Shown piece by piece: positions 3,966 through 30,332 of a stretch of DNA of 64,000 nt. The notes beneath the pieces were generated by a model. That model saw only the letters and a list, made by a program, of their open reading frames with translations. It was not told where the DNA came from and ran no database searches. The DNA is from an uncultured Gammaproteobacteria bacterium (lineage in GTDB: Bacteria; Patescibacteriota; Microgenomatia; Levybacterales; GWA1-39-11): NCBI GenBank assembly GCA_964427615.1, contig CAYRUR010000001.1, positions 119,303 through 183,302 of the forward strand, given 5' to 3'. Position numbers and translations under genes: made by a program. The stretch's first letter is position 1; the number at the start of each line of letters is the position of its first letter.

Positions 3966-6900
3966 TAGCTAAAACAATATCATATGCTGAATACAGTATG
4001 GAGCCAGCTGAAGTCTATAATGAGTCTCATGTGTCAGAAAGTGGAAAACTTTCCTCTAGTGGTACTTCTCATGAACATCAAAAGGGAAAAAGACCCTTTC
4101 TTCAAGTAGTTGCTCGAGATGGAGAGGCTGTAAGTGCTACAGGACAAGATAGCTTAGATGATGTAGCCGGTCCTGAACCTATTCTTTTTCCAAGCTACCT
4201 TCAAGAAGAACCCTCACCACTTTCTATAAATTCTCAAGAAAAAGGAAAGGTAAAACACGACCTCACACCTCATGAATTATTTGAAGAAGAAAGGTGGGAA
4301 GAATCTTCTTTAGAAGAGAAAATAAGAGAACGTGTGAGTCAAGTAAAAAGTAAAAGAGAAATGGAAAGCTACCTCAGTAAAAATGGTCCTTTAGTAAATG
4401 AAATGCGAAAAGCTATTCAAGAATATGCTAGTTTGCGACTTAATAATATAAGAGAGATAGATCGTATGACCGCAGAACTAACTGGAAAATTTTACCAACA
4501 GCTGGAAGAGGCAATTCATTCTATTGATGGTACTTTACTGGAAGAAGAATGGTTGCAAGAAGCTGAATCAAAACTAAATCCCTTTATTTACGGACTGCTG
4601 CATGCAAAAAATGAAGTAGAGGCATTGAGAATGGAGACAAATGTCTCCAATCCTTCCCCTGAGCCTAGTGGTAGTTTAAGTGCTACTACATCTATGCAGC
4701 CAGAGGAAGAAGGACCTGCGGGTGGTGGGGGAGCTGGTGGAGGAGAAGGAGGCGGCGGAGGAGCTGGTGGAGGATTTGAAGGAGGCTTTGATTATTGGTA
4801 TATCAGCCCTGAAAGAAAAAGGAGAAATCCTGAAGATATAGAGGATTTAGCGGTGGGAATTATGTTTTCAGACCCTCAAAAATGGGGAAGTCTTATGTAT
4901 GTGCGCGAGCGCTATGAAAGTGCTCCAGGAGAACGTGATGGAGCTATTGAAATAGTAGAAAATGGTACAACAAGAATATTAACGCAAGGAGAACATCCGA
5001 TGTTTGATACTGTTTATATACCAAATGAGGGAGAAAGAATTACCTTGAAAGATGGAGATCAAGTTATAGATGAAGAAGTTGGAGCGTCAACTGAACAAGG
5101 TAGAGTAAGAGGAAAGACTACAGAGATAGAAGTTTTAGAAATGAATAGATATATTATGCATGATGGACAAAAATATGAGGTTGGAACTTATGAAATAAGA
5201 AGAATTAAGGGAACTAACGATGTTGTGGATATTGATCCTCGAGATATAAAAGGAAAAATTACAGAGGTATTTAACAAGGATAACTTTTTAAGGTGGGATA
5301 GAGAGCGGGTAGTAACCATTGATATGCAAGATCCTTTTGCTCCGCAAAAATTTTATTCTGAAGTAGATGTGAGTGATCCTAACTGGCTGCGGGGGCATTT
5401 TCCAATGGGACAACTTATGAAAGAAGACAGATGGTGGTTGCTTAAAAATGGAGAAAAAGTTACCGATTTACAGGATGCAACTGTCGACGTGCTTTCTGGA
5501 GCTGGAAATATTCTTAATGGAGGAAAAGAATATAACTTTGTAATGCCTAAAGAATCAGAACTGGTAAAGTATCTCGATGGGGTATATTCTCAGAATACAT
5601 GGACACGAGAATCGGGTGGTATTAGTTATCTTCGTAGGATTTTTGAAATGCCACAAAATTTAAGTGATCACGGAGAATATGATGAGGTTGGGGGAGATAT
5701 TAAAGTTGGGAGTGCTATTAGAAGCATGACTTTGCATTGGTACTACTCGACAGATTTTGAAAAACTAGTGGAGTTATATGGTGAAGATTATACTTTTTTT
5801 AAACGTTCTTATTGGGAAAATGCGCTAAGCAAAGTTGCAAAACAAACAAGTTTTAAAAGTGACTTATCAGAAGAAGAGCTAAGAGCATCAGGTGATTGGG
5901 GTGGGCTTGTTCAATACGATATAAATACCTTTTTCAAAGGGGATGAGGATACTATGGATATCTTTAAAAGAAACAATGATGGGTCATTTGTATTAGAGAA
6001 TGGGAAAAAAGTTGTAGATCCTCAGAAGGCTATGGAAATAGTTAAAAAAATTAACATCTTTGTTCCTCAAAGACCTGACGCAGATAAGTTGGTTGTGAGA
6101 GATGTTTTAAAAAATGGTATTGGAGAATTTTATGGCCTTCAAGATGATAAAGACAACCTCAATTTCGCTGAACTAATCGCTTTTCGGATTTGTTATCCAA
6201 CAGGAATTAATGCCAGGAATGATATTGTACATGCAGGCATGGACGCTTGGGTAAAGTGGCAACGTACTTTTTGGTACCGTAATAAGCAATTGGATGGAGA
6301 TAGAGGAGGATCTGCCGGAAATTACTATAATATGCAAATTTTTAGACAACTAGGAGCAGATTTTTTTACAGGGATTGATACATTAACGGGTAATTCAATT
6401 CTCCAACTTATGGAGGAGGCAGAAAAAGAAGTTAGAAGAGATAGTGAAAATAATAGAGGTGTGAGGACACAAAAAATTTTGGATACCCAAAAAAAGTTGC
6501 GGTTCTCAGCTGATTCTCAGAGACAATTTCTTTCAAATCAAATTAAAAATGCTGCGGGAATGTACGAGAGTCTCACTGACCTAAAAGAAATAAGCTTCCA
6601 AAAATATTCAAAACTCGTTGAGGGTAGACTGGAAATAGATGAAGCAGCGTTTAGTGAAGACCTTAAAGGAGGAGTAATAAAACCTTTGCGTTATATGATT
6701 AGTACTTGGAAACAGCTTGATTTTGGAGAAGAAGAGAGAACAATGATTCCAATAATCAACGAGAAAGGAGAAGCAAAGGAGGGAGAATATAAGACAGTAA
6801 CAAGGCTTGAAGCATATTTTGGAGAAGCAACAGCAGCAGTTTTTAGGAATGATAAGGCCTGGGATTTTGGAGATGCATTAAAAGGGAGAATAGACAGTCT

Positions 6901-7522
6901 TTCCGAGGCGGATTCACGTAAGGCAATAGAAGATTATCTGTCATTTCTTGTTAACCCTAATCCCGAAAAAGATGAAGATAAAGGAAAAGCAGATAAAACG
7001 GCTAAAAAATTAGCATCAGCATACTCTCAAGAATTTATAGGAAAAGATTTTTCAGAACTCACTAGCATTGAGAGAAAGCAACTTTTAACTAAATTAACTG
7101 AAACAAAAGGAATGCTTTCCATTGGAGAAGCAAAAGTAGTAAATGATGTACATAGAACTCATCTTTTTAAATATGCAGTGGCATTTTACGCAGGTACTCA
7201 ATTGCTTGCTCATAGAAAAAATGTTAGCCGCAATTATTTTGAAAAATACGACATTATAGAAAGTCGTACCTTTTTACGTCTTCTTGATTCTATTCCTGGT
7301 AAAGCAATTTTTGATGAAGATGATCTGAGAAATACGCGAGTTGATGGAAATTTCTTTGGAAAAGATATGTATGGAAGGGACTATATGGAGTTTATTAAAG
7401 CACTGTCTAATACTACGACAGGTAAATTATGGACTGGTCACTTAATACTTTTGCTTTTAGGTGCAATGAGAGAAGCTTTTGGAGAGTCTACAGAAGAACT
7501 TACAAAAGGAATTGCTGCTTAA
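3923..7522 (+). CDS. Very large (about 1170-1200 aa) soluble protein of unknown function with an internal poly-Gly tract
   Basis: Uninterrupted 3.6-kb ORF with no transmembrane segments and acidic, coiled-coil-like N-terminal regions. Low-complexity GPAGGGGAGGGEGGGGGAGGGFEGGF tract near nt 4715-4790. A start at 3923 would overlap the upstream gene by 43 nt, so the ATG at 3998 (MEPAEV) is the more likely start. Confidence 0.6.
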   Translation: MLFFYNVRMRERLTLAKTISYAEYSMEPAEVYNESHVSESGKLSSSGTSHEHQKGKRPFLQVVARDGEAVSATGQDSLDDVAGPEPILFPSYLQEEPSPLSINSQEKGKVKHDLTPHELFEEERWEESSLEEKIRERVSQVKSKREMESYLSKNGPLVNEMRKAIQEYASLRLNNIREIDRMTAELTGKFYQQLEEAIHSIDGTLLEEEWLQEAESKLNPFIYGLLHAKNEVEALRMETNVSNPSPEPSGSLSATTSMQPEEEGPAGGGGAGGGEGGGGGAGGGFEGGFDYWYISPERKRRNPEDIEDLAVGIMFSDPQKWGSLMYVRERYESAPGERDGAIEIVENGTTRILTQGEHPMFDTVYIPNEGERITLKDGDQVIDEEVGASTEQGRVRGKTTEIEVLEMNRYIMHDGQKYEVGTYEIRRIKGTNDVVDIDPRDIKGKITEVFNKDNFLRWDRERVVTIDMQDPFAPQKFYSEVDVSDPNWLRGHFPMGQLMKEDRWWLLKNGEKVTDLQDATVDVLSGAGNILNGGKEYNFVMPKESELVKYLDGVYSQNTWTRESGGISYLRRIFEMPQNLSDHGEYDEVGGDIKVGSAIRSMTLHWYYSTDFEKLVELYGEDYTFFKRSYWENALSKVAKQTSFKSDLSEEELRASGDWGGLVQYDINTFFKGDEDTMDIFKRNNDGSFVLENGKKVVDPQKAMEIVKKINIFVPQRPDADKLVVRDVLKNGIGEFYGLQDDKDNLNFAELIAFRICYPTGINARNDIVHAGMDAWVKWQRTFWYRNKQLDGDRGGSAGNYYNMQIFRQLGADFFTGIDTLTGNSILQLMEEAEKEVRRDSENNRGVRTQKILDTQKKLRFSADSQRQFLSNQIKNAAGMYESLTDLKEISFQKYSKLVEGRLEIDEAAFSEDLKGGVIKPLRYMISTWKQLDFGEEERTMIPIINEKGEAKEGEYKTVTRLEAYFGEATAAVFRNDKAWDFGDALKGRIDSLSEADSRKAIEDYLSFLVNPNPEKDEDKGKADKTAKKLASAYSQEFIGKDFSELTSIERKQLLTKLTETKGMLSIGEAKVVNDVHRTHLFKYAVAFYAGTQLLAHRKNVSRNYFEKYDIIESRTFLRLLDSIPGKAIFDEDDLRNTRVDGNFFGKDMYGRDYMEFIKALSNTTTGKLWTGHLILLLLGAMREAFGESTEELTKGIAA
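4714..4791 (+). repeat. GGn/GGA low-complexity tract encoding a poly-Gly linker inside the 1199-aa ORF
   Basis: ggtgggggagctggtggaggagaaggaggcggcggaggagctggtggagga: short direct GGN/GCT repeats that are slippage-prone. Confidence 0.6.
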
Positions 7523-7570: not shown

Positions 7571-9397
7571 CTAGATCGGGCTCCGTTCTCTTCTACTAGA
7601 TCTACGATTTAGTAGTCTTCTTTTTTCATCATCTGTAAGATTTGGCAACCTTCTTATTTCCTCCTCAGTATATGGCTGCAAATCATCTCGCAGACCTAAC
7701 CCCCAATTTCTTAATGAACTGCTATTGCTGCGTGAAAGACGTTGAGCTAACGGTCGCTTTATTCTTTCATCATATGCAGTACTGAGAGGGCCTGTAGCTA
7801 CACCCTCTTTATTTCTTGCAAAGAGCACATTCTTAGGGATTCCTGCAAATGGTTTTACTACTTGTGCTCCAATCCCTAAGCTGTTTGGAATAGCTTGTGC
7901 ATATTTAAGTGAAGGAGTATTAAGCTTGTCTTTGATCATGTTAATAACTTCTGGGGTGATAAGAATAGTTGCCATACCAAAAAGAGCTGATAATGCTTCT
8001 GGAGCACCGGGATTACCAATAAGTGGAGGAGTGAAGTACTCTTCTCCTGGAGCAAAGGCGCTCATAAGCACCTTTGCAATCAAAAACATAAATATAGTTG
8101 CTGGAAATACAAGTAAGTACGTGATGATATATTTTAGCCATGCTCCGAAACCTAGACCTGAGTTAGGAATAATTCCCATGGCAATCCAAAAAGGAGAGAG
8201 TATAACTGCTAGAAGTACTCTGATGTAAGACGTAAGGAGTCGGAACCAAATTCGTACAAGTGTTATAAATATAGCTATAGATACAATGAAAAACATAATC
8301 ATTCCTCCTAATATCCCGGCCACACTACCAATAACATTGACGTCCTCGGTACAATCCCACATCGCATCAAGACTAATACCAGTAACCCGGGAGATAATAC
8401 CTCCATCTGATTCAATATGTTGAATTACACAATCTTGGTATACTGGACTGACTGACTGAGGTATGAGAAATATAATACGAGTAACAGTTTGGGTAATGGT
8501 ATTATGAAAAATTCCTAAATTATTTATTACATTGGAGATTACTTCTCCTGTACCCAAAGCTATCTTAAAAGGTATTATGAAAAATCCTATTCCGAGTTCG
8601 CTATCGGTGAAAGGAAGGGGAAGATTGTATAGGTGATTGGCAAAGCCAAAAGGAGTGTTAAAAGCATATTTAAGCATATTTCCTAATGCTCCTGATTCAT
8701 CAAGGGGTGAGAAAGTAGCAAATAAGAGCAGTAATAACACCCACATCATGTCTATCAGAAATCCTGCAATGGGAAAGGAAAAGGTGACAAGCACAAGCGT
8801 AATAATAATTTTAGGAATTTGATTTTGAACAGCCATTACTGCTCTATCATTGAGTTTAAATCTGAACATAATGCCAAGGCCAATGATAACTACAATAAGG
8901 CTAAAAAGAAGATACACAATATTTCTAAACTGTATCCAAATCTTCTGAATAGGTTTTAAGCCTTCAAACCCTATTCCTCCCTCTTCTGCAGCTTGTGCTT
9001 TTTTAGAAAACCCAAAGTTGTGAGAAAGGTAGGTGGCGTAATCATTGCTAGATATAGGGAAGTTGTACGTCATTCCTATAAGTTGTCCCATTTGATTGAC
9101 AGCACCACCATTATTATCTACATAGGTAATCTTCTTTGTTTGAGGATCAACTCCAAGGCATTTTCCGTTAGGTGAAATAGGATCTGCACCTATTACAAAA
9201 CAAGTATAAGTAGAAAAGAACTCAATGAATAAGCTCTGGGTGAATGTGTGGAGGTTTTTTGGTACCGATGCGTCTACATTGGGCTCCAGGTAGCTTGATG
9301 ACTCTATGTTTTGTGCGCTCACTGGAAAAACAAAAAACTTAGTAAAAAGAAGCGTAAAGACAAAAAAGGTCAAAATGGGCAATAACAACTTTTTCAT
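7571..9397 (-). CDS. Polytopic membrane protein with an N-terminal extracytoplasmic domain and a basic C-terminal tail; possible VirB6/TrbL-like channel component
   Basis: Signal peptide, then a ~130-aa Cys-containing soluble region, then at least six predicted transmembrane helices, then an Arg-rich disordered C-terminus (RRLLNRRSSRRERSPI). This architecture matches VirB6-family proteins. No diagnostic motif was seen, so the assignment is topological only. Confidence 0.4.
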   Translation of the reverse strand: MKKLLLPILTFFVFTLLFTKFFVFPVSAQNIESSSYLEPNVDASVPKNLHTFTQSLFIEFFSTYTCFVIGADPISPNGKCLGVDPQTKKITYVDNNGGAVNQMGQLIGMTYNFPISSNDYATYLSHNFGFSKKAQAAEEGGIGFEGLKPIQKIWIQFRNIVYLLFSLIVVIIGLGIMFRFKLNDRAVMAVQNQIPKIIITLVLVTFSFPIAGFLIDMMWVLLLLLFATFSPLDESGALGNMLKYAFNTPFGFANHLYNLPLPFTDSELGIGFFIIPFKIALGTGEVISNVINNLGIFHNTITQTVTRIIFLIPQSVSPVYQDCVIQHIESDGGIISRVTGISLDAMWDCTEDVNVIGSVAGILGGMIMFFIVSIAIFITLVRIWFRLLTSYIRVLLAVILSPFWIAMGIIPNSGLGFGAWLKYIITYLLVFPATIFMFLIAKVLMSAFAPGEEYFTPPLIGNPGAPEALSALFGMATILITPEVINMIKDKLNTPSLKYAQAIPNSLGIGAQVVKPFAGIPKNVLFARNKEGVATGPLSTAYDERIKRPLAQRLSRSNSSSLRNWGLGLRDDLQPYTEEEIRRLPNLTDDEKRRLLNRRSSRRERSPI

Positions 9398-10417: not shown

Positions 10418-10867
10418 ATGCTTTGCCCTTATTGCAGAAAAAATGGAACTGAAGTCGTTGAGACACGAATTGCCGAAGACGGAACAAATATTAGAAGAAG
10501 AAGATCATGTTCTTCCTGTGGCAAACGGTTTACTACTTATGAAAGAATTGAGAATGTAACATTAGTAGTAAAGAAAAAAGACGGAAGACGTGAGCAATTT
10601 GATAGAGATAAGTTACGAGCAGGAGTGATCCGGGCATGTGAGAAAACAAGTGTTTCAATTGATAAAATTCATGATATAGTAGATGTTATTGAAAGAGAAC
10701 TACGTAACGGTGAATCAGTAGAGGTTGAAAGTAGAAAGATAGGACAGCTTACGGCTGTTAAACTGAAAAAAGTAGATAAGGTAGCATATATTCGATTTGC
10801 AAGTGTTTTTAAGCGTTTTGTTGATTTAGACGATTTTGAGAAAGAATTAAAAAGATTATTAAAATAA
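10418..10867 (+). CDS. nrdR: Transcriptional repressor NrdR (Zn-ribbon plus ATP-cone)
   Basis: N-terminus MLCPYCRKNGTEVVETRIAEDGTNIRRRRSCSSCGKRFTTYERIE is a canonical NrdR zinc ribbon. It sits immediately upstream of an RNR gene. Confidence 0.9.
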   Translation: MLCPYCRKNGTEVVETRIAEDGTNIRRRRSCSSCGKRFTTYERIENVTLVVKKKDGRREQFDRDKLRAGVIRACEKTSVSIDKIHDIVDVIERELRNGESVEVESRKIGQLTAVKLKKVDKVAYIRFASVFKRFVDLDDFEKELKRLLK

Positions 10868-10868
10868 T

Positions 10869-13283
10869 ATGAAACTTGAAGGATTATCAGAAAAAGTATT
10901 TTTAGACAGATATGCTCTCAAAGATAAAAAGGGCAACCCTATCGAAAAAGACCCTCGCCAGATGTGGAGGAGAATTGCTAAGGCAGTAGCAGAGCAAGAA
11001 GAAGGAGAAAGTAAAAAGATTTGGGAAAAAGAATTTTATGAGGCTCTAAAGGGTTTTAAGTATGTTCCTGGCGGAAGAATCCATGCAGGCGCGGGAACTG
11101 GGTATCAAGTTACTTATTATAATTGTTTTGTAATTCCTTCTCCAAAAGATTCACGAGGTGGTATTATTGATACCCTCAAGCAAATGGTTGAAATTATGGC
11201 ACACGGTGGTGGTGTTGGTATCAACCTCTCCTCTCTTCGTCCTCGCGGTTTTCGAGTTAAGAAAGTAAATGGATTCTCCTCTGGTCCTTGTAACTGGGCA
11301 GAGCTGTTCTCTATTGCTACCAAAGATATTATTCAACAGGGTGGTACTCGTCGAGGTGCACTTATGTTAATGCTTTGGGACTGGCATCCTGATGTAGAAG
11401 AATTTATTACCGTAAAACAAGACTTACTCCGTATCAATGGAGCTAATCTTTCCGTATGTGTGTCTGATAAATTCATGGATGCAGTTGAAAAAGATGGAGA
11501 CTGGGATCTGGTTTTCCCTGATAAAGATGATCCAGATTATGATGAAAAATGGGATGGAGACCTAGAGGCTTGGAAAAAGCTTGGTAAAAAAGTAATAGTA
11601 CACAAAACAGTAAAGGCACGCAAGATATGGGATCTGATTGCTGAAGCTGCTTGGAAATCAGCAGAGCCAGGAGTAGTCTTCATGGAGCGCTACAACAAGC
11701 TATACAACAACTGGTACTGGAACAGCATCAATTGTGTAAATCCATGTGGAGAAGAAGGACTTCCACCATGGGGAGTATGTAACTTGGGTTCTATCAACCT
11801 TTCTGCTTTTGTCAAAGGGTATGAAGTAGATAAAAAAGGAGAGTTTGATTTTGAGACATTAAAGAAAGTAGTGAGAGTAGGAGTGAGATTCCAAGACAAT
11901 GTAGTGAGTATGGATCCATATATTTTTGAAGGAATTCGCAAGACACAGCTTGAGGGAGAAAGAAGAATTGGTCTTGGTACCATGGGTTTGGGAGATGCAC
12001 TAATTAAATTACACTTACGTTATGGTTCACCTGAAGCATTGGAGTTTATAGATGAAGTGTATAAGCTTATTAGAGACGAAGCATACAGAGCGTCATCTGA
12101 GATTGCCAAAGAAAAAGGAGCATTTCCAAAGTTTGATAAAGAACTTTTCCCACAAGGAGCATTTATCAAGCAACTTCCAAAAGACATCCAGAAGATGATT
12201 AAAGAGCAAGGGATTCGCAACTCGCTTCTTTTGATGCAAGCACCAACAGGGTCAATCTCTTTGATGGCTAACACCACTTCTGGTATAGAGCCGGTATATG
12301 AATTTGAATTTATCAGGAGAAGTAGAATTGGGGAGCATGTAATCAGACACCATTTGTATGATGAATGGTACAAAGTACATGATAAAGAACTGGAAGAAGG
12401 AAAAATACAAAGACCGGATTACTTTGTCTCTGCAAATGATCTTACTCCAGAAGAGCATGTGGAAACACAGGGTATCATCCAAAAATATGTGGATGCTTCT
12501 ATCTCAAAGACAGTAAATGCACCTAAGACGCATACTGTAGAGGATGTAAAAAGACTATATACCTTAGCTTACAAATTAGGTTGTAAAGGGATAACCTATA
12601 TGAGAGAAGGATCACGAGTCGGCGTATTAGAAAGAAAAGAGGACAAAAAAGAAGAAGTAAAGGAAGAAATAAAGCAATTACCACCTATTATGCGCAGGCC
12701 AATGGTCATGCAAGGAGTAACATATAAAACGCAAACACCACTGGGGAGTACCTTTATTACCATCAATGTAGACAAGGATGGTAATCCTTTTGAAGTCTTT
12801 ATTAATGCTGGGAAATCAGGTTCTGATGTCATGGCTATGGCAGAGGCATTAGGGCGCATGATTTCATTTGCTTTAAGAATGCAGGGTCCTATTGATTCAC
12901 GGGAAAAAATAGAAAGAATTATTGCCCAAATGACGGGTATCGGAGGTGCAAGAACAGTTGGCTTTGGTCCTAATAGAGTGAGATCTTTGCCTGATGCTGT
13001 AGCCAAGATCCTCGCTGATCACTTTGAATTTAAGGTAAATGGAAAAGTTACTGACGTAAAAAAGAATATAAAAGCTGATGCTATGGAGCCAGCTAGTCTT
13101 ACAAATGGACACGCAGCAGCAAATGAACATGCAGTGATGGCCTTACAACCATCTTTATTGCACGCTGAATCTGCTTCTTCTACAAATGATAGTTTTGATA
13201 TCTGTCCTGATTGTGGAACATCAGGTTTAGCACACGAAGAAGGTTGTATAAAATGTTACTCATGTGGATATTCCGCATGTTAA
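10869..13283 (+). CDS. nrdJ: Class II (adenosylcobalamin-dependent) ribonucleotide reductase with a C-terminal Zn-ribbon
   Basis: NrdJ-type N-terminus (VFLDRYALKDKKGNPIEKDPRQMWRRIAKAVA). Active-site region NPCGEEGLPPWGVCNLGSINL. C-terminal CPDCG...CIKCYSCG zinc ribbon. Length 804 aa. A start codon 2 nt after the nrdR stop indicates an operon. Confidence 0.85.
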   Translation: MKLEGLSEKVFLDRYALKDKKGNPIEKDPRQMWRRIAKAVAEQEEGESKKIWEKEFYEALKGFKYVPGGRIHAGAGTGYQVTYYNCFVIPSPKDSRGGIIDTLKQMVEIMAHGGGVGINLSSLRPRGFRVKKVNGFSSGPCNWAELFSIATKDIIQQGGTRRGALMLMLWDWHPDVEEFITVKQDLLRINGANLSVCVSDKFMDAVEKDGDWDLVFPDKDDPDYDEKWDGDLEAWKKLGKKVIVHKTVKARKIWDLIAEAAWKSAEPGVVFMERYNKLYNNWYWNSINCVNPCGEEGLPPWGVCNLGSINLSAFVKGYEVDKKGEFDFETLKKVVRVGVRFQDNVVSMDPYIFEGIRKTQLEGERRIGLGTMGLGDALIKLHLRYGSPEALEFIDEVYKLIRDEAYRASSEIAKEKGAFPKFDKELFPQGAFIKQLPKDIQKMIKEQGIRNSLLLMQAPTGSISLMANTTSGIEPVYEFEFIRRSRIGEHVIRHHLYDEWYKVHDKELEEGKIQRPDYFVSANDLTPEEHVETQGIIQKYVDASISKTVNAPKTHTVEDVKRLYTLAYKLGCKGITYMREGSRVGVLERKEDKKEEVKEEIKQLPPIMRRPMVMQGVTYKTQTPLGSTFITINVDKDGNPFEVFINAGKSGSDVMAMAEALGRMISFALRMQGPIDSREKIERIIAQMTGIGGARTVGFGPNRVRSLPDAVAKILADHFEFKVNGKVTDVKKNIKADAMEPASLTNGHAAANEHAVMALQPSLLHAESASSTNDSFDICPDCGTSGLAHEEGCIKCYSCGYSAC

Positions 13284-14444: not shown

Positions 14445-15017
14445 TTGGTTTTTAATATTTCTATTATGCCTATTTATACAAAAACTGGAGACAAAGGAAA
14501 AACAGCATTACGGACTAATGAGCGGGTATGGAAAGATTCAGTACGCGTTGAAAGTTATGGAACAGTTGATGAGCTTAATGCGTATTTAGGGGTAGTGCTT
14601 TCTTATATTGATACAGATGCAAAAAAAGAATTGCGTTATGTAGCAGATCTAGTGGTTACAGTACAAAATGATTTGTTTTTTATTGGTTCTTATATTGCCA
14701 ACCCTGGTGAGAAGCGGGACCTGACAGTGCTTAACAAGCATATTACGTATTTTGAGGATGAGATAGATGGTATGACAGAGCAAATGCCAGAACTTAAAAA
14801 TTTTATTCTTCCAGGAGGAGGAAAGGTAGGAGCATCCTTGCAGTACGCACGTACTATTTCCAGAAGAGCGGAGAGAAAATTAGTTTCTTTGCACAAGGCA
14901 GAAGGGGTTGAAAAAGAAATTTTGCAGTATATAAATAGACTTTCTGACTTATTATTTACGTTGTCTCGCTTTGCCAATTACGTAGAAAAAAAGAAAGAGA
15001 TAATTTGGTCTTTGTAA
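14445..15017 (+). CDS. pduO: ATP:cob(I)alamin adenosyltransferase, PduO type
   Basis: N-terminus MPIYTKTGDKGKTALRTNERVWKDSVRVESYGTVDELNAYLG is the PduO-type ATR signature. Length about 190 aa. Confidence 0.85.
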   Translation: MVFNISIMPIYTKTGDKGKTALRTNERVWKDSVRVESYGTVDELNAYLGVVLSYIDTDAKKELRYVADLVVTVQNDLFFIGSYIANPGEKRDLTVLNKHITYFEDEIDGMTEQMPELKNFILPGGGKVGASLQYARTISRRAERKLVSLHKAEGVEKEILQYINRLSDLLFTLSRFANYVEKKKEIIWSL

Positions 15018-15256
15018 CGGGTGAATGAGGTGTAAATCCTCAGCTATGCCGTAGCTGTGATCTTAGGTAAATACTAAGAAAGTCAGATCCCCGTCTGTTT
15101 CAATATTTAATTTGAGAACAGGAAAAGTCTTTCGAGTCCATGTACCATGCGGTACAGGACCATGCGCTGAATAGTGCATGGCAAGAGCAATTTTGTATCC
15201 TTATCCTGCCTTCTCGAAATTCTGTTACAGAACAAAATGAGAAGGTTTTTTTATTG
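15018..15256 (+). promoter_or_regulatory. Cobalamin riboswitch-like leader, copy 2, with a rho-independent terminator as expression platform
   Basis: GAGGUGUAAAUCCUCAGCUAUGCCGUAGCUGUGAUCUUAGG parallels the copy-1 core (GGUG.AAAUCC...GC...CCG.AGCUGU). A B12-box-like AAGUCAGAUCCCCGUCUG follows. The terminator ccttctc...gagaagg plus TTTTTTT lies at 15209-15252, just before the ATG at 15265. Confidence 0.5.
15209..15252 (+). terminator. Intrinsic terminator (riboswitch expression platform)
   Basis: Stem CCTTCTC/GAGAAGG enclosing the sub-hairpin ttctgttacagaa, followed by a 7-T run. Confidence 0.55.
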
Positions 15257-19073: not shown

Positions 19074-19238
19074 ATGTTTATTGTATAGTAAGTCCCACTA
19101 CACTTCCACTTCCGCTAAAGCTCCAGTGGACAAGAAAGTTTCGTGGGACACACTTCGCAGAGGCCAATTGAGGGAGTAGTGGAATATTGAGTGGCTGTGC
19201 CACACGAAGCTCTGTACTGTAAAGTACGGAGCGAAGTG

Positions 19239-19646
19239 TGGAGATGGGGAGGAGTGACCTCCCGTCCAAAAAATACAAATCACAACGTCTACAAGCATAG
19301 TCAGTTTTTAAGTGTCGTCATATCCTTATCCAACTGACAGGAAAAAATATGACCAAGGCTTTTTAAGAGCACAAAAGACAAGCCAAATCTTTTGCTCTTT
19401 CCTCACCTGGGTTATTGCCTATAAGGAAGCGATGAGGGACTCATCTTATAGACAGCTCGCATTAAGCTGCGAATGCAAAAGCGGGAGTTACCCCAACTTT
19501 TGGCATGGCATCAGCAAAAACTTGCCTGATACCGCGGCTGATGGATTTACCTTCAGCATGTATTATTTGATCCTGTTTTATGACGCATGAATCAACGTCA
19601 GCTTGCTGTTGTAAAAGTGCATTTCCTGTCGAATCAATTCATCCCC
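19239..19646 (-). ncRNA. ssrA: tmRNA (SsrA)
   Basis: Read on the minus strand, the 5' end GGGGAUGAAUUGAUUCGACAGGAAAUGC matches the tmRNA consensus GGGG.UGA.U.GGAUUCGAC.GG. The 3' end GGACGGGAGGUCACUCCUCCCCAUCUCCACA forms a T-arm and an acceptor stem. The acceptor 5'-GGGGAUG pairs with 3'-CAUCUCC, giving the G3:U70 Ala identity pair. An internal tag-like frame ends ...PAFAFAA-TAA and is followed by a hairpin. The gene abuts smpB. Confidence 0.7.
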
Positions 19647-26142: not shown

Positions 26143-26215
26143 GTGCGCCCGGATGGATTCGAACCATCGACATCTACTTTATAAGAGTAGCGCTCTGCCC
26201 CTGAGCTACGGGCGC
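26143..26215 (-). tRNA. tRNA with anticodon UAU (Ile, AUA-decoding), CCA not encoded
   Basis: Minus strand GCGCCCG-UA-GCUC-AGGGGCA-GAGC-G-CUACU-CUUAUAA-AGUAG-AUGUC-GAUGG-UUCGAAU-CCAUC-CGGGCGC-A. Perfect 7-bp acceptor, U8, GG in the D-loop, U33 and A37, and a TUCGAAU T-loop. Confidence 0.6.
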
Positions 26216-29037: not shown

Positions 29038-29238
29038 AGTTTCATGATATCAAAATAGACCTTGCACTACAATCAATTCAGGTAGTTTGTGAGGCTGTTG
29101 TGAGGTACTTGAAAGGTACAAAACAAAAAGAAGGGAAAAGAGAAGAATTTTATTATATTTGGTATAATAGGGGTCGTTTACGAGATCTTTGGAGGAGTCG
29201 TCCTTACAGGACTTCTCACTTACTAAGAATCAATCAAT

Positions 29239-29328
29239 GGAGGAGTCGCATAGCTGGTCCATTGCGGGGGTTTGCTAAACCCCTGAGCCTTTTGGCTCGC
29301 GCAGGTTCGAATCCTGTCTCCTCCGCCA
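29239..29328 (+). tRNA. tRNA-Ser (anticodon GCU) with long variable arm, CCA encoded
   Basis: GGAGGAG...anticodon stem GGGGU/ACCCC with loop UUGCUAA...variable arm UGAGCCUUUUGGCUCGC...GCAGG-UUCGAAU-CCUGU-CUCCUCC-G-CCA. Confidence 0.8.
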
Positions 29329-29373
29329 AAATTGTTTTTTTGGTTTTAACATCTATAAAGCTCTTATACGAGG

Positions 29374-30147
29374 TTATTTAGATGAAGCGTTAAAAAGTTC
29401 TATAAGCTTAGTTTGTTCTTTCATTTTGAGCAAATCATTCATATTATTAATAATACTTCTTTGCTGTAGTTTTGGATTACTAAAGCCTATTTTTTTACAA
29501 AAAATATCTATATCTTTATCATTACTAATATAAAGGGAGTTTTTTAATGAAAGGGTAGGTCTGATCCCAAGGCTCAAAAGAGAATCTCTAACAAACAAAA
29601 TAAGTTCTTTATTATAATTTCTAAAATTTAACTGTTTGTAGAGAGAGGTTCCTTTCTTACTTCTGTAATCTTTGAAGGAAATTGATCCTTCAGTATCAAA
29701 AAGTCCTCTTATGCAAGCACTTCTGTATTCTTCTTTAGAATAAATCCAAGAGGGCACTGTTTTTCTTTTGGGTATTATTCCCATATTAAGTAAAAATTCT
29801 GCAACTATTTTTGAGCTTATTCTTATATCTGTCGCATTTTCTTTTTTTCTCTTTATGAGAGAAATTTTAATTTCCGGAAATAATGTACTTATTAAATTTA
29901 CAACATAAGGGATATACTGCTTGTCTGCTTCTGAATTAAGGGTTATCGCAATTTGGTAAGGAGAAACGTACCCATCTCCTAAACAAATACCAACAAGCTC
30001 AGCTAAACGAGTACTCACACTAGGAAGTAAAACATTTTTTAACCCATTTTTATTAAAGTTATTCGCACACTTTAGTGAACAAAACTTGTATTTCCTTTCT
30101 CGCTTTCTGAATTCTTTCTTGCAAAAAGTACATTGTCCTAGTATCAT
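29374..30147 (-). CDS. Free-standing double-motif LAGLIDADG homing-endonuclease-like protein with an N-terminal Cys4 zinc finger
   Basis: Two LAGLIDADG-type motifs (LVGICLGDGYVS and IRGLFDTEGSIS) about 100 aa apart. N-terminal CTFC...CSLKC. Confidence 0.7.
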   Translation of the reverse strand: MILGQCTFCKKEFRKRERKYKFCSLKCANNFNKNGLKNVLLPSVSTRLAELVGICLGDGYVSPYQIAITLNSEADKQYIPYVVNLISTLFPEIKISLIKRKKENATDIRISSKIVAEFLLNMGIIPKRKTVPSWIYSKEEYRSACIRGLFDTEGSISFKDYRSKKGTSLYKQLNFRNYNKELILFVRDSLLSLGIRPTLSLKNSLYISNDKDIDIFCKKIGFSNPKLQQRSIINNMNDLLKMKEQTKLIELFNASSK

Positions 30148-30218
30148 ACACTAAACCACCCTGCAATAAGTATACAGATTATTATTTTTGTTTACAATTT
30201 GTTACAATAATTGGACTC

Positions 30219-30305
30219 GGAGAGGTGCTGGAGTGGACGATCAGGAAGGTCTTGAAAACCTTTGTGGGTGCAAGCTCACCGTGGGTTCGAATCCCACCCT
30301 CTCCG
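30219..30305 (+). tRNA. tRNA-Ser (anticodon UGA) with long variable arm
   Basis: GGAGAGG...anticodon stem AAGGU/ACCUU with loop CUUGAAA...variable arm UGUGGGUGCAAGCUCACCG...GUGGG-UUCGAAU-CCCAC-CCUCUCC-G. Confidence 0.8.
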
Positions 30306-30332
30306 CATAGGTGATATAGGTAAACGCCTTAT

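Follow-up and report, generated by a model that had tools for sequence, protein, structure and literature searches.

A probable free-standing LAGLIDADG homing cassette at the 5' end of tRNA-Ser genes in bacteria of the Candidate Phyla Radiation

Most known free-standing homing endonucleases come from phages and organelles, and to our knowledge the LAGLIDADG enzymes of bacteria of the Candidate Phyla Radiation (CPR) have been described only inside ribosomal RNA (rRNA) insertions. SegB of phage T4 is a free-standing GIY-YIG endonuclease encoded in the transfer RNA (tRNA) cluster of the phage; it recognises the T-loop motif GGTTCRANTCC and drives inheritance of its own gene together with the flanking tRNA region (PMC2330249), and is reported to promote segmental amplification of tRNA loci (PMC13096335). 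In CPR genomes, LAGLIDADG genes have been catalogued in insertions or introns of 16S and 23S rRNA genes (PMC11270868), and a survey of CPR tRNA introns makes no mention of the family described here (PMC13011429). The present subject is a free-standing LAGLIDADG endonuclease gene in a 64,000-nt stretch of contig CAYRUR010000001.1 (the window; positions are counted along the whole stretch). The gene encodes 257 amino acids (aa) on the minus strand at 29374-30147, next to tRNA-Ser(UGA) at 30219-30306 (plus strand); the open reading frame (ORF) and the 71-nt promoter spacer that separates it from this tRNA probably constitute a selfish homing cassette lodged at the tRNA-Ser(UGA) 5' end. No description of a tRNA-Ser-linked LAGLIDADG family was found in the full-text literature, coverage of which is incomplete, and the family at this boundary is apparently undescribed so far.

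The protein matches Pfam PF14528 (LAGLIDADG_3) with an E-value of 2.6e-11 and 44.1 bits against a curated cut-off of 22.5. Motif 1 (aa 48-61, LAELVGICLGDGYV, minus strand 29965-30006) features ICLGDGYV with the predicted catalytic residue D58 in LGDG, and motif 2 (aa 146-156, IRGLFDTEGSI, minus strand 29680-29712) features GLFDTEGSI with the predicted catalytic residue E153 in DTEG; both acids are kept. Across 26 homologues, residues G57, D58 and G59 and residues D151, T152, E153 and G154 do not vary, and both GDG and DT[DE]G are present in all of the approximately 60 wider family members checked. The AlphaFold2 model, built from 26 homologues, has a pLDDT (predicted local distance difference test score) of 91.9 and displays two alpha-beta-beta-alpha-beta-beta-alpha domains in a single chain; Foldseek gives a probability of 1.00 to I-Tsp061I, I-DmoI and PI-PfuI, the best match being 2dch (E 1.7e-11, TM-score 0.75 on the target, 24% identity), and the archaeal intron enzymes I-Tsp061I and I-DmoI are the nearest solved structures by sequence too. 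The N-terminal Cys4 zinc-ribbon module (aa 1-33, minus strand 30049-30147) is assigned from the model and from the cysteines C6, C9, C23 and C27, each at least 90% conserved in the 26 homologues; it is modelled as two beta-hairpins followed by a helix, with a linker of lower confidence at aa 33-45, one relative has a weak DUF2116 treble-clef match, and the ribbon is probably an extra DNA-binding domain. The protein is confidently considered an intact two-domain LAGLIDADG homing endonuclease, and its residues predict cleavage, which in this superfamily is site-specific, breaks both DNA strands and leaves 4-nt 3' overhangs. A C-terminal G[FS]xNPK motif, in which GGTTCGAATCC encodes G-S-N-P, was considered as a relic of a tRNA T-loop and rejected, as it is equally conserved in archaeal relatives that do not lie beside tRNA-Ser.

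On the other side of the ORF lies tRNA-Ser(GCU) at 29239-29328 (plus strand); ARAGORN and the Rfam tRNA model both identify the two tRNAs (51.9 bits for GCU and 54.4 bits for UGA), and both genes are complete and uninterrupted. Between 28900 and 30500 there is no Rfam match to an intron or other RNA family at E≤1 apart from the tRNAs, the antisense RF04351 matches being the tRNA-Ser sequences themselves; since there is neither an intron-like RNA nor a host protein around the ORF, the endonuclease is considered free-standing. The first-pass annotation, made from the sequence, had described a double-motif LAGLIDADG protein with a Cys4 finger on the opposite strand between two tRNA-Ser genes, outside any intron or intein, and the Pfam profile, the nearest structures, the motifs and both tRNA callers agree with it. 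Its picture of a gene sandwiched between two tRNAs is true of the window and proves incidental; tRNA-Ser(UGA) is the constant partner of the endonuclease clade, while the position, orientation or presence of tRNA-Ser(GCU) varies across it.

The spacer between the ORF and tRNA-Ser(UGA) holds two predicted promoters back to back. The extended -10 box of the tRNA, TGTTACAAT, is located at 30200-30208 (plus strand), 10 nt before the tRNA, and its pattern T.TG.TA.AAT is invariant in seven aligned loci; on the opposite strand, a candidate endonuclease promoter (TTGTAA, a 17-nt spacer and TATACT; minus strand 30169-30197) is assigned by consensus scan only, and a -10-like hexamer occurs at this position in all members of the clade. 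A conserved 16-nt 5'-leader element, GCAGGGTGGTTTAGTG, which resembles the tRNA-Ser D-arm, occupies 30149-30164 (minus strand) immediately before the ATG.

The window protein belongs to a large family. Among 5.8 billion proteins searched there are 140 homologues; the 120 matches listed show 45-68% identity over proteins of approximately 245 aa and, where named, come from Roizman-, Levy- and Daviesbacteria. In 1.84 billion cluster representatives (clustered at 50% identity), a profile matched 1,567 clusters at E≤1e-10, including 314 at E≤1e-30, with members mostly of 330-350 aa, the longer forms carrying an N-terminal helix-turn-helix (HTH) domain, HTH_3, instead of the zinc ribbon. The earlier statement that free-standing LAGLIDADG genes are uncommon in bacterial chromosomes fails for the CPR, where such genes are common; among the viral contigs of IMG/VR no relatives of the family were found.

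Linkage to tRNA-Ser is strict. Through conserved peptide patterns alone, 66 genome loci (numbered with L here) were fetched and then scanned for tRNAs; a tRNA-Ser adjoins the gene in all 47 bacterial loci, within 161 nt in every case and within 85 nt in 46 (the tRNA of L028 is cut by the contig end and was recovered with nhmmer). The tRNA is co-directional with the ORF in 41 loci, where it starts 0-38 nt past the stop codon or overlaps the 3' end of the ORF, with one at 161 nt; in the window clade (the window and L001-L006) the ORF instead diverges from tRNA-Ser(UGA) across a spacer of 38-85 nt, and this inverted arrangement is shared by at least 13 loci (the window, L001-L006, L067, L077, L091, L093, L105 and L108). 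In a neighbour-joining tree the protein clades largely follow the serine isoacceptor (UGA, GCU, CGA or GGA), UGA having one zinc-ribbon clade, and GGA, CGA and GCU having HTH clades. Two copies can reside in one metagenome-assembled genome (MAG) at different isoacceptors, as seen in L022 and L025. In L004, a second, HTH-type member of 333 aa (5995-6996, plus strand) lies 32 nt 5' of a tRNA-Arg(GCG)-tRNA-Ser(CGA) pair and 0.8 kb from the window-type copy, placing two endonuclease genes and four tRNAs within 3 kb.

Archaeal relatives, mostly from the DPANN group (Diapherotrites, Parvarchaeota, Aenigmarchaeota, Nanoarchaeota and Nanohaloarchaeota), abut the 5' end of tRNA-Gln, -Gly, -Lys, -Cys or -Asn in 8 or 9 of 14 cases, some of these tRNA calls resting on intron-aware ARAGORN and being less certain; the habit of occupying tRNA 5' flanks is therefore confined neither to bacteria nor to tRNA-Ser. 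In the archaeal MAGs L023, L040, L048, L054, L058 and L066 the gene ends at or overlaps the 5' end of tRNA-Gln, -Gly, -Lys or -Cys, and some of the tRNA genes abutted in this way contain introns.

Comparison of related loci displays sites with and without the gene. A scan of metagenome contigs with the first 41 nt of the window-type tRNA-Ser(UGA) gave 48 loci; 33 of these have at least 900 nt upstream and are assessable, a site being counted as occupied if a family member lies within 100 nt 5' of a tRNA-Ser. By this measure 14 of the 33 are occupied and 19 are empty, or approximately 12 against 15 with near-duplicates removed. The clearest series is a syntenic block that runs from a Nudix-like gene through tRNA-Ser(CGA), tRNA-Arg(GCG) and a gene of approximately 180 aa to tRNA-Ser(GCU), tRNA-Ser(UGA), a ComF-like gene and SmpB. 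L070, L099 and L110 have the empty form, in which just 2 nt separate Ser(GCU) from Ser(UGA) and Ser(GCU) is preceded, at a distance of 10 nt, by a TGATATAAT promoter; in L070 and L099 the junction between the two tRNAs reads …CCTCCGCCAA / GGTGAGGTGCTGG…. In L088 and in L092/L106 a cassette lies directly 5' of Ser(GCU) and replaces its promoter, while in L096 the 2-nt gap is filled by a cassette of approximately 1,047 nt that immediately precedes Ser(UGA). Occupied L096 and empty L099 do not differ over the first 30 nt of the tRNA, and so only the altered upstream flank can protect the occupied allele. The L096 enzyme is 59% identical to that of L092, compared with 48% between L092 and L088, although the latter two share a site; because L096 is closer to L092 than L088 is, the endonuclease appears to have switched between neighbouring Ser genes. 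Endonucleases at one syntenic site are thus 48% identical, while their flanks are 68-77% identical at the DNA level. A further empty allele, L089, corresponds to a locus occupied by window-type genes in L091 and L077 and by an HTH-type gene in L079.

The empty-site comparison proposed in the first-pass annotation therefore sets L070, L099, L110 and L089 against L088, L092, L096, L091 and L077; the gene is not stably present in relatives, syntenic sites being empty, occupied or swapped. Its suggestion of a remnant of a homing or insertion event at a tRNA locus stands as to an insertion-type gene with empty sites in relatives, and falls as to the word remnant, since the gene is intact. The 11.9-kb contig L110 carries all four tRNA-Ser genes and no family member; as an entirely endonuclease-free segment it holds only in part. 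In L110 the 5' end of the tRNA-Arg(GCG)-tRNA-Ser(CGA) pair is overlapped by a 246-aa ORF (approximately 1987-2727, stored coordinates) that carries an HTH_Tnp_1 domain and one LAGLIDADG-like motif, LLSMLYWAEGSK; Pfam and Protein Data Bank (PDB) sequence searches found no LAGLIDADG domain in it, and the niche may here be taken by another kind of endonuclease.

The boundaries of the cassette are visible where one endonuclease has taken the place of another. Loci L073 and L077 are 100% identical from position -1 to +148 of tRNA-Ser(UGA) and 94.5% identical over 218 nt of the opposite flank; the gene enclosed by these flanks is of the HTH type in L073 and of the window type, with a zinc ribbon, in L077. 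The right breakpoint falls exactly at the tRNA 5' end (-1/+1) and the left breakpoint inside the C-terminal coding region of the HTH-type gene, approximately 45 codons of which survive as a remnant in L077 and L105, with the window-type ORF reading into it. These breakpoints define the window-type cassette as the ORF and the divergent-promoter spacer, abutting tRNA +1, and the alignments indicate that it overwrote a competing HTH-type endonuclease in L077 and L105. Inserted segments measure 0.8-1.05 kb and consist of the ORF and promoter only. In L067 (approximately 10574-11513, stored coordinates) the window-type gene is split over two frames encoding residues 1-139 and 141-237, which is either a frameshifted pseudogene or an assembly error; this frameshift, the second copy in L004 and the two-copy MAG of L022/L025 fit a process of turnover.

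On this evidence, the following route is proposed. A monomeric two-domain LAGLIDADG core with its N-terminal zinc ribbon would recognise approximately 20 bp across the 5' edge of a tRNA-Ser gene that lacks a cassette, that is, the first 10-25 nt of the tRNA and whatever lies upstream. A double-strand break at this boundary would be repaired from a cassette-bearing genome, copying the cassette in by intronless homing, and the occupied allele would be protected as the sequence upstream of tRNA +1 had been replaced by the cassette. Being on the 5' side, the cassette would also supply or replace the promoter of the tRNA; it would thereby gain expression and make its clean deletion costly to the host. 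Classic target-site duplication on insertion was considered and ruled out, as exact repeats of the tRNA 5' end upstream of the ORF are essentially absent from 22 co-directional ORFs.

Several points weigh against a homing cassette. Cleavage and the target site, as well as the route of spread and the dependence of the host on the captured promoter, are deduced from comparison of sequences, and horizontal transfer is argued from loci rather than from conflict between gene and host trees. Nearly all copies are intact and 45-68% identical within the clade, which is unusual for a decaying selfish gene; some empty sites could be losses, and with the window-type arrangement in at least 13 loci much of the history may be vertical. 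Immunity would rest wholly on the upstream half-site, which differs between insertion contexts, and simple homing does not predict the tRNA-like sequence at the 5' end of the ORF that is described below.

In a rival explanation, the family is or was mobile and the window copy is now a stranded passenger, inherited only vertically and persisting through the tRNA-Ser(UGA) promoter in its spacer, irrespective of any remaining cleavage activity. The shared inverted arrangement in the loci listed above agrees with this, as do the invariant tRNA -10 box inside the spacer and the lack, among the sampled loci, of an empty allele close to the species of the window itself. It is nonetheless judged unlikely: the ORF is intact and lacks none of the catalytic or structural residues, a cassette of the same type overwrote another endonuclease in L077 and L105, and L089 is an empty allele of the locus that this type occupies in L091.

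Sequence resembling the 5' half of tRNA-Ser recurs at the start of the endonuclease gene in several guises. The leader GCAGGGTGGTTTAGTG, which matches positions 10-25 of a tRNA-Ser 5' model, is conserved in the window and L001-L006 and is also found in the spacers of L077, L093, L105 and L108. In L008/L086 and in L009 this place before the ATG is taken by a tRNA-Ser 5' half of 27-33 nt, at a distance of 3 nt in L008 and approximately 30 nt in L009. The remaining UGA-clade loci (L010-L016) have GAGTGGTTTAAAG just upstream of a TGnTATAAT box, and the ATG of these ORFs is probably leaderless. Many HTH-clade members read TATAAT-GGAGAT-ATG-GCT-GAA-TCG-TTA-AAG at their 5' end (TATAAT-GGAGAT-ATGGCTGAATCGTTAAAG); this is how tRNA-Ser begins (GGAGAGGTGGCTGAGTGGTTGAAAG), the ATG falling on tRNA positions 7-9. 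A tRNA 5'-half profile scored at 4 bits or more gives 10 hits in 4.6 kb around ORF starts, compared with approximately 8 in the remaining 437 kb. The motif is retained whether it falls in untranslated leader, in DNA upstream of the promoter or in coding sequence, which suggests selection on the DNA itself. In the sub-lineages L088, L092 and L096 the promoter is of an ordinary kind, TTGACw-N17-TAGKAT, and a tRNA mimic is not obvious. By analogy with I-TevI, the element is favoured as a putative operator that mimics the target of the enzyme; the alternative is a relic of insertion into a duplicated tRNA copy.

The same element is part of the case for a domesticated host factor, recruited to regulate tRNA-Ser transcription or to bind tRNA-Ser, with a leader that mimics the tRNA for autoregulation; tRNA linkage would then reflect function and not homing. 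WhiA and the mitochondrial maturases are precedents for recruited LAGLIDADG proteins, and a host factor would account for a strict and ancient linkage in 47 of 47 bacterial loci, for genes that are mostly intact and conserved, for extra DNA-binding domains (the zinc ribbon, or HTH_3 in the longer clades), for tRNA-Ser-like sequence at the ORF 5' end in every clade and for probable co-transcription with the tRNA. Such a role is less readily reconciled with 19 of 33 comparable tRNA-Ser sites that lack the gene, with the 11.9 kb and four tRNA-Ser genes of L110 without a family member, or with endonuclease types that replace each other in near-identical backgrounds; both catalytic acids are also invariant, unlike those of WhiA. 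Domestication is hence considered distinctly improbable.

An intron, an intein or an integrase-type island using tRNA-Ser as its attachment site can be dismissed almost entirely. In its favour, the nearest relatives with solved structures come from introns or inteins, tRNA genes are well-known targets of integration and tRNA-Ser 3' fragments lie downstream in a few loci; against it, there is no intron RNA, both tRNAs are complete, the ORF is not within a host protein, the insert of 0.8-1.05 kb is ORF and promoter alone, and the insertion is on the 5' and not the 3' side of the tRNA with no integrase nearby. Fragments of the att type (tRNA 3' ends downstream of the resident tRNA) were likewise rejected as a general feature, being present only in L010, L014, L049 and L022. 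Isolated tRNA-Ser 3' halves occur a few kb from the endonuclease in L022 (11296-11347) and L024 (10989-11027); these are of the kind left by integrases at att sites and appear unrelated to the cassette.

Upstream of tRNA-Ser(GCU), at 29191-29200 (plus strand), the window carries a copy of the first 10 nt of that tRNA (29239-29248), followed by 38 nt of unrelated filler. The duplication had already been noticed in the first-pass annotation and is exact: GGAGGAGTCG occurs exactly twice in the 64 kb on either strand, at 29191 and 29239, and the repeat is therefore not attributed to chance. The TATAAT box reported with it is also present, with coordinates that need shifting by one base (29163-29168 in place of 29164-29169); by direct reading it forms an extended -10 box, TGgTATAAT, at 29160-29168 (plus strand), the likely tRNA-Ser(GCU) promoter. 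This promoter lies approximately 70 nt from the mature 5' end, compared with 10-13 nt in related empty loci, so that approximately 48 nt (the 10-nt copy and the filler) look inserted. As comparable fragments recur at tRNA-Ser genes of related genomes, a link between the repeat and endonuclease activity at such loci is plausible; the tRNA concerned, tRNA-Ser(GCU), is not the partner of this endonuclease. A structured leader upstream of tRNA-Ser(GCU) was considered and abandoned, the predicted hairpin not being significant (z = -1.4).

Other loci contain tRNA 5' fragments of their own. In L005 (5713-5845, minus strand) two tandem 67-nt units each open with 26 nt copied from the 5' end of the tRNA-Ser downstream, after which come a hairpin and a run rich in T; this downstream tRNA has the anticodon ACU, which is unusual, and a normal tRNA-Ser(GCU) is located elsewhere in the locus. 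An orphan 35-nt tRNA-Ser 5' fragment, GGAAGTGTGGCTGAGTGGTTGAAAGCGGCAGCTCG, is seen in L076 (approximately 8916-8950) and also in L107, L080 and L104, between Ser(GCU) and Ser(UGA) with no ORF. Such orphan fragments may have been left behind when a cassette was lost, or may have arisen during break repair at these sites.

It is tentatively suggested that an ancient CPR/DPANN class specialised on tRNA 5' flanks combines promoter capture, decoy autoregulation and footprints of cutting. Essential tRNA promoters would be captured or replaced, so that the host could not delete the cassette cleanly; the tRNA-Ser 5' half kept at the promoter, leader or first codons would act as a decoy that controls expression of the cassette; and the 10-nt repeat, the L005 tandem repeats and the L076 orphan fragment would be the footprints.

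The genes neighbouring the endonuclease encode a TrwB/TraG-like ATPase, a 129-aa ORF of no known kind and a NUDIX hydrolase; no integrase or transposase is among them. The ATPase is 72% identical (aa) to that of L005, the closest sampled relative, and its gene has the tRNA-Ser(UGA)/endonuclease unit on one side in the window and on the other in L005; the genome has therefore been rearranged around the tRNA/endonuclease unit. A tRNA-Ile with anticodon UAU is located at 26143-26215 (minus strand), 44 nt downstream of the ATPase gene, and this tRNA species is also present in L005. Elsewhere in the window, Rfam identifies a full-length transfer-messenger RNA (tmRNA) of 411 nt at 19236-19646 (minus strand, 122.5 bits) that ARAGORN does not call; in the related loci L002 and L003, ARAGORN finds tmRNAs of 410-421 nt with long tag peptides. 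A Cobalamin riboswitch aptamer at 14975-15112 (plus strand) scores 36.0 bits against the Rfam gathering score of 31.5, and is unexpected for a reduced, CPR-type genome.

The family would be significant as the occupant of one precise niche, the tRNA-Ser 5' boundary, with isoacceptor lineages, site switching and cassette-for-cassette replacement, and as a mobile-element niche common to CPR bacteria and DPANN archaea. It would provide a case of a selfish gene taking over transcription of an essential tRNA in minimal genomes, and a natural series of compact meganucleases with targets readable from empty sites; it would also account for many of the "hypothetical proteins" annotated beside tRNA-Ser genes in the CPR.

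Among characterised enzymes, I-Tsp061I and I-DmoI share the fold, the monomeric two-domain single chain and the conserved acids; however, they are encoded in archaeal rRNA introns and target rRNA genes, while the window enzyme is free-standing, has an extra N-terminal Cys4 ribbon (HTH_3 in the sister clades) and is tied to the tRNA-Ser 5' flank. WhiA has a LAGLIDADG scaffold and a helix-turn-helix domain, and relatives of the window protein give weak WhiA-domain matches, with Foldseek matches of the window model to 3hyi and 8dy9; WhiA lacks the catalytic acids, has a C-terminal HTH and is universally conserved in its lineages, whereas the window family has invariant acids, an N-terminal extra domain and a gene whose presence varies. 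I-TevI reportedly represses its own expression at a homing-site-like operator overlapping the endonuclease gene promoter; similarly, a target-resembling sequence, the tRNA-Ser 5'-half-like element, is found in the promoter or leader of every clade here, although this element is known from its sequence and is equally a possible relic of insertion. The CPR enzymes catalogued in PMC11270868 belong to the same host group and superfamily and show the same target-specific homing into highly conserved RNA genes; they are located inside rRNA insertions or introns, and tRNA is not mentioned in that paper. In lifestyle the family is closest to the free-standing Seg and Mob endonucleases of phage T4. SegB, likewise a free-standing endonuclease gene among tRNA genes, is the nearest functional analogue, though not by descent; it is a phage GIY-YIG enzyme with relaxed specificity for many tRNAs, while Pfam identifies only LAGLIDADG and no GIY-YIG domain in the window protein, and the fixed position at the tRNA 5' end and the isoacceptor-specific lineages, both absent from SegB, are features of the window family.

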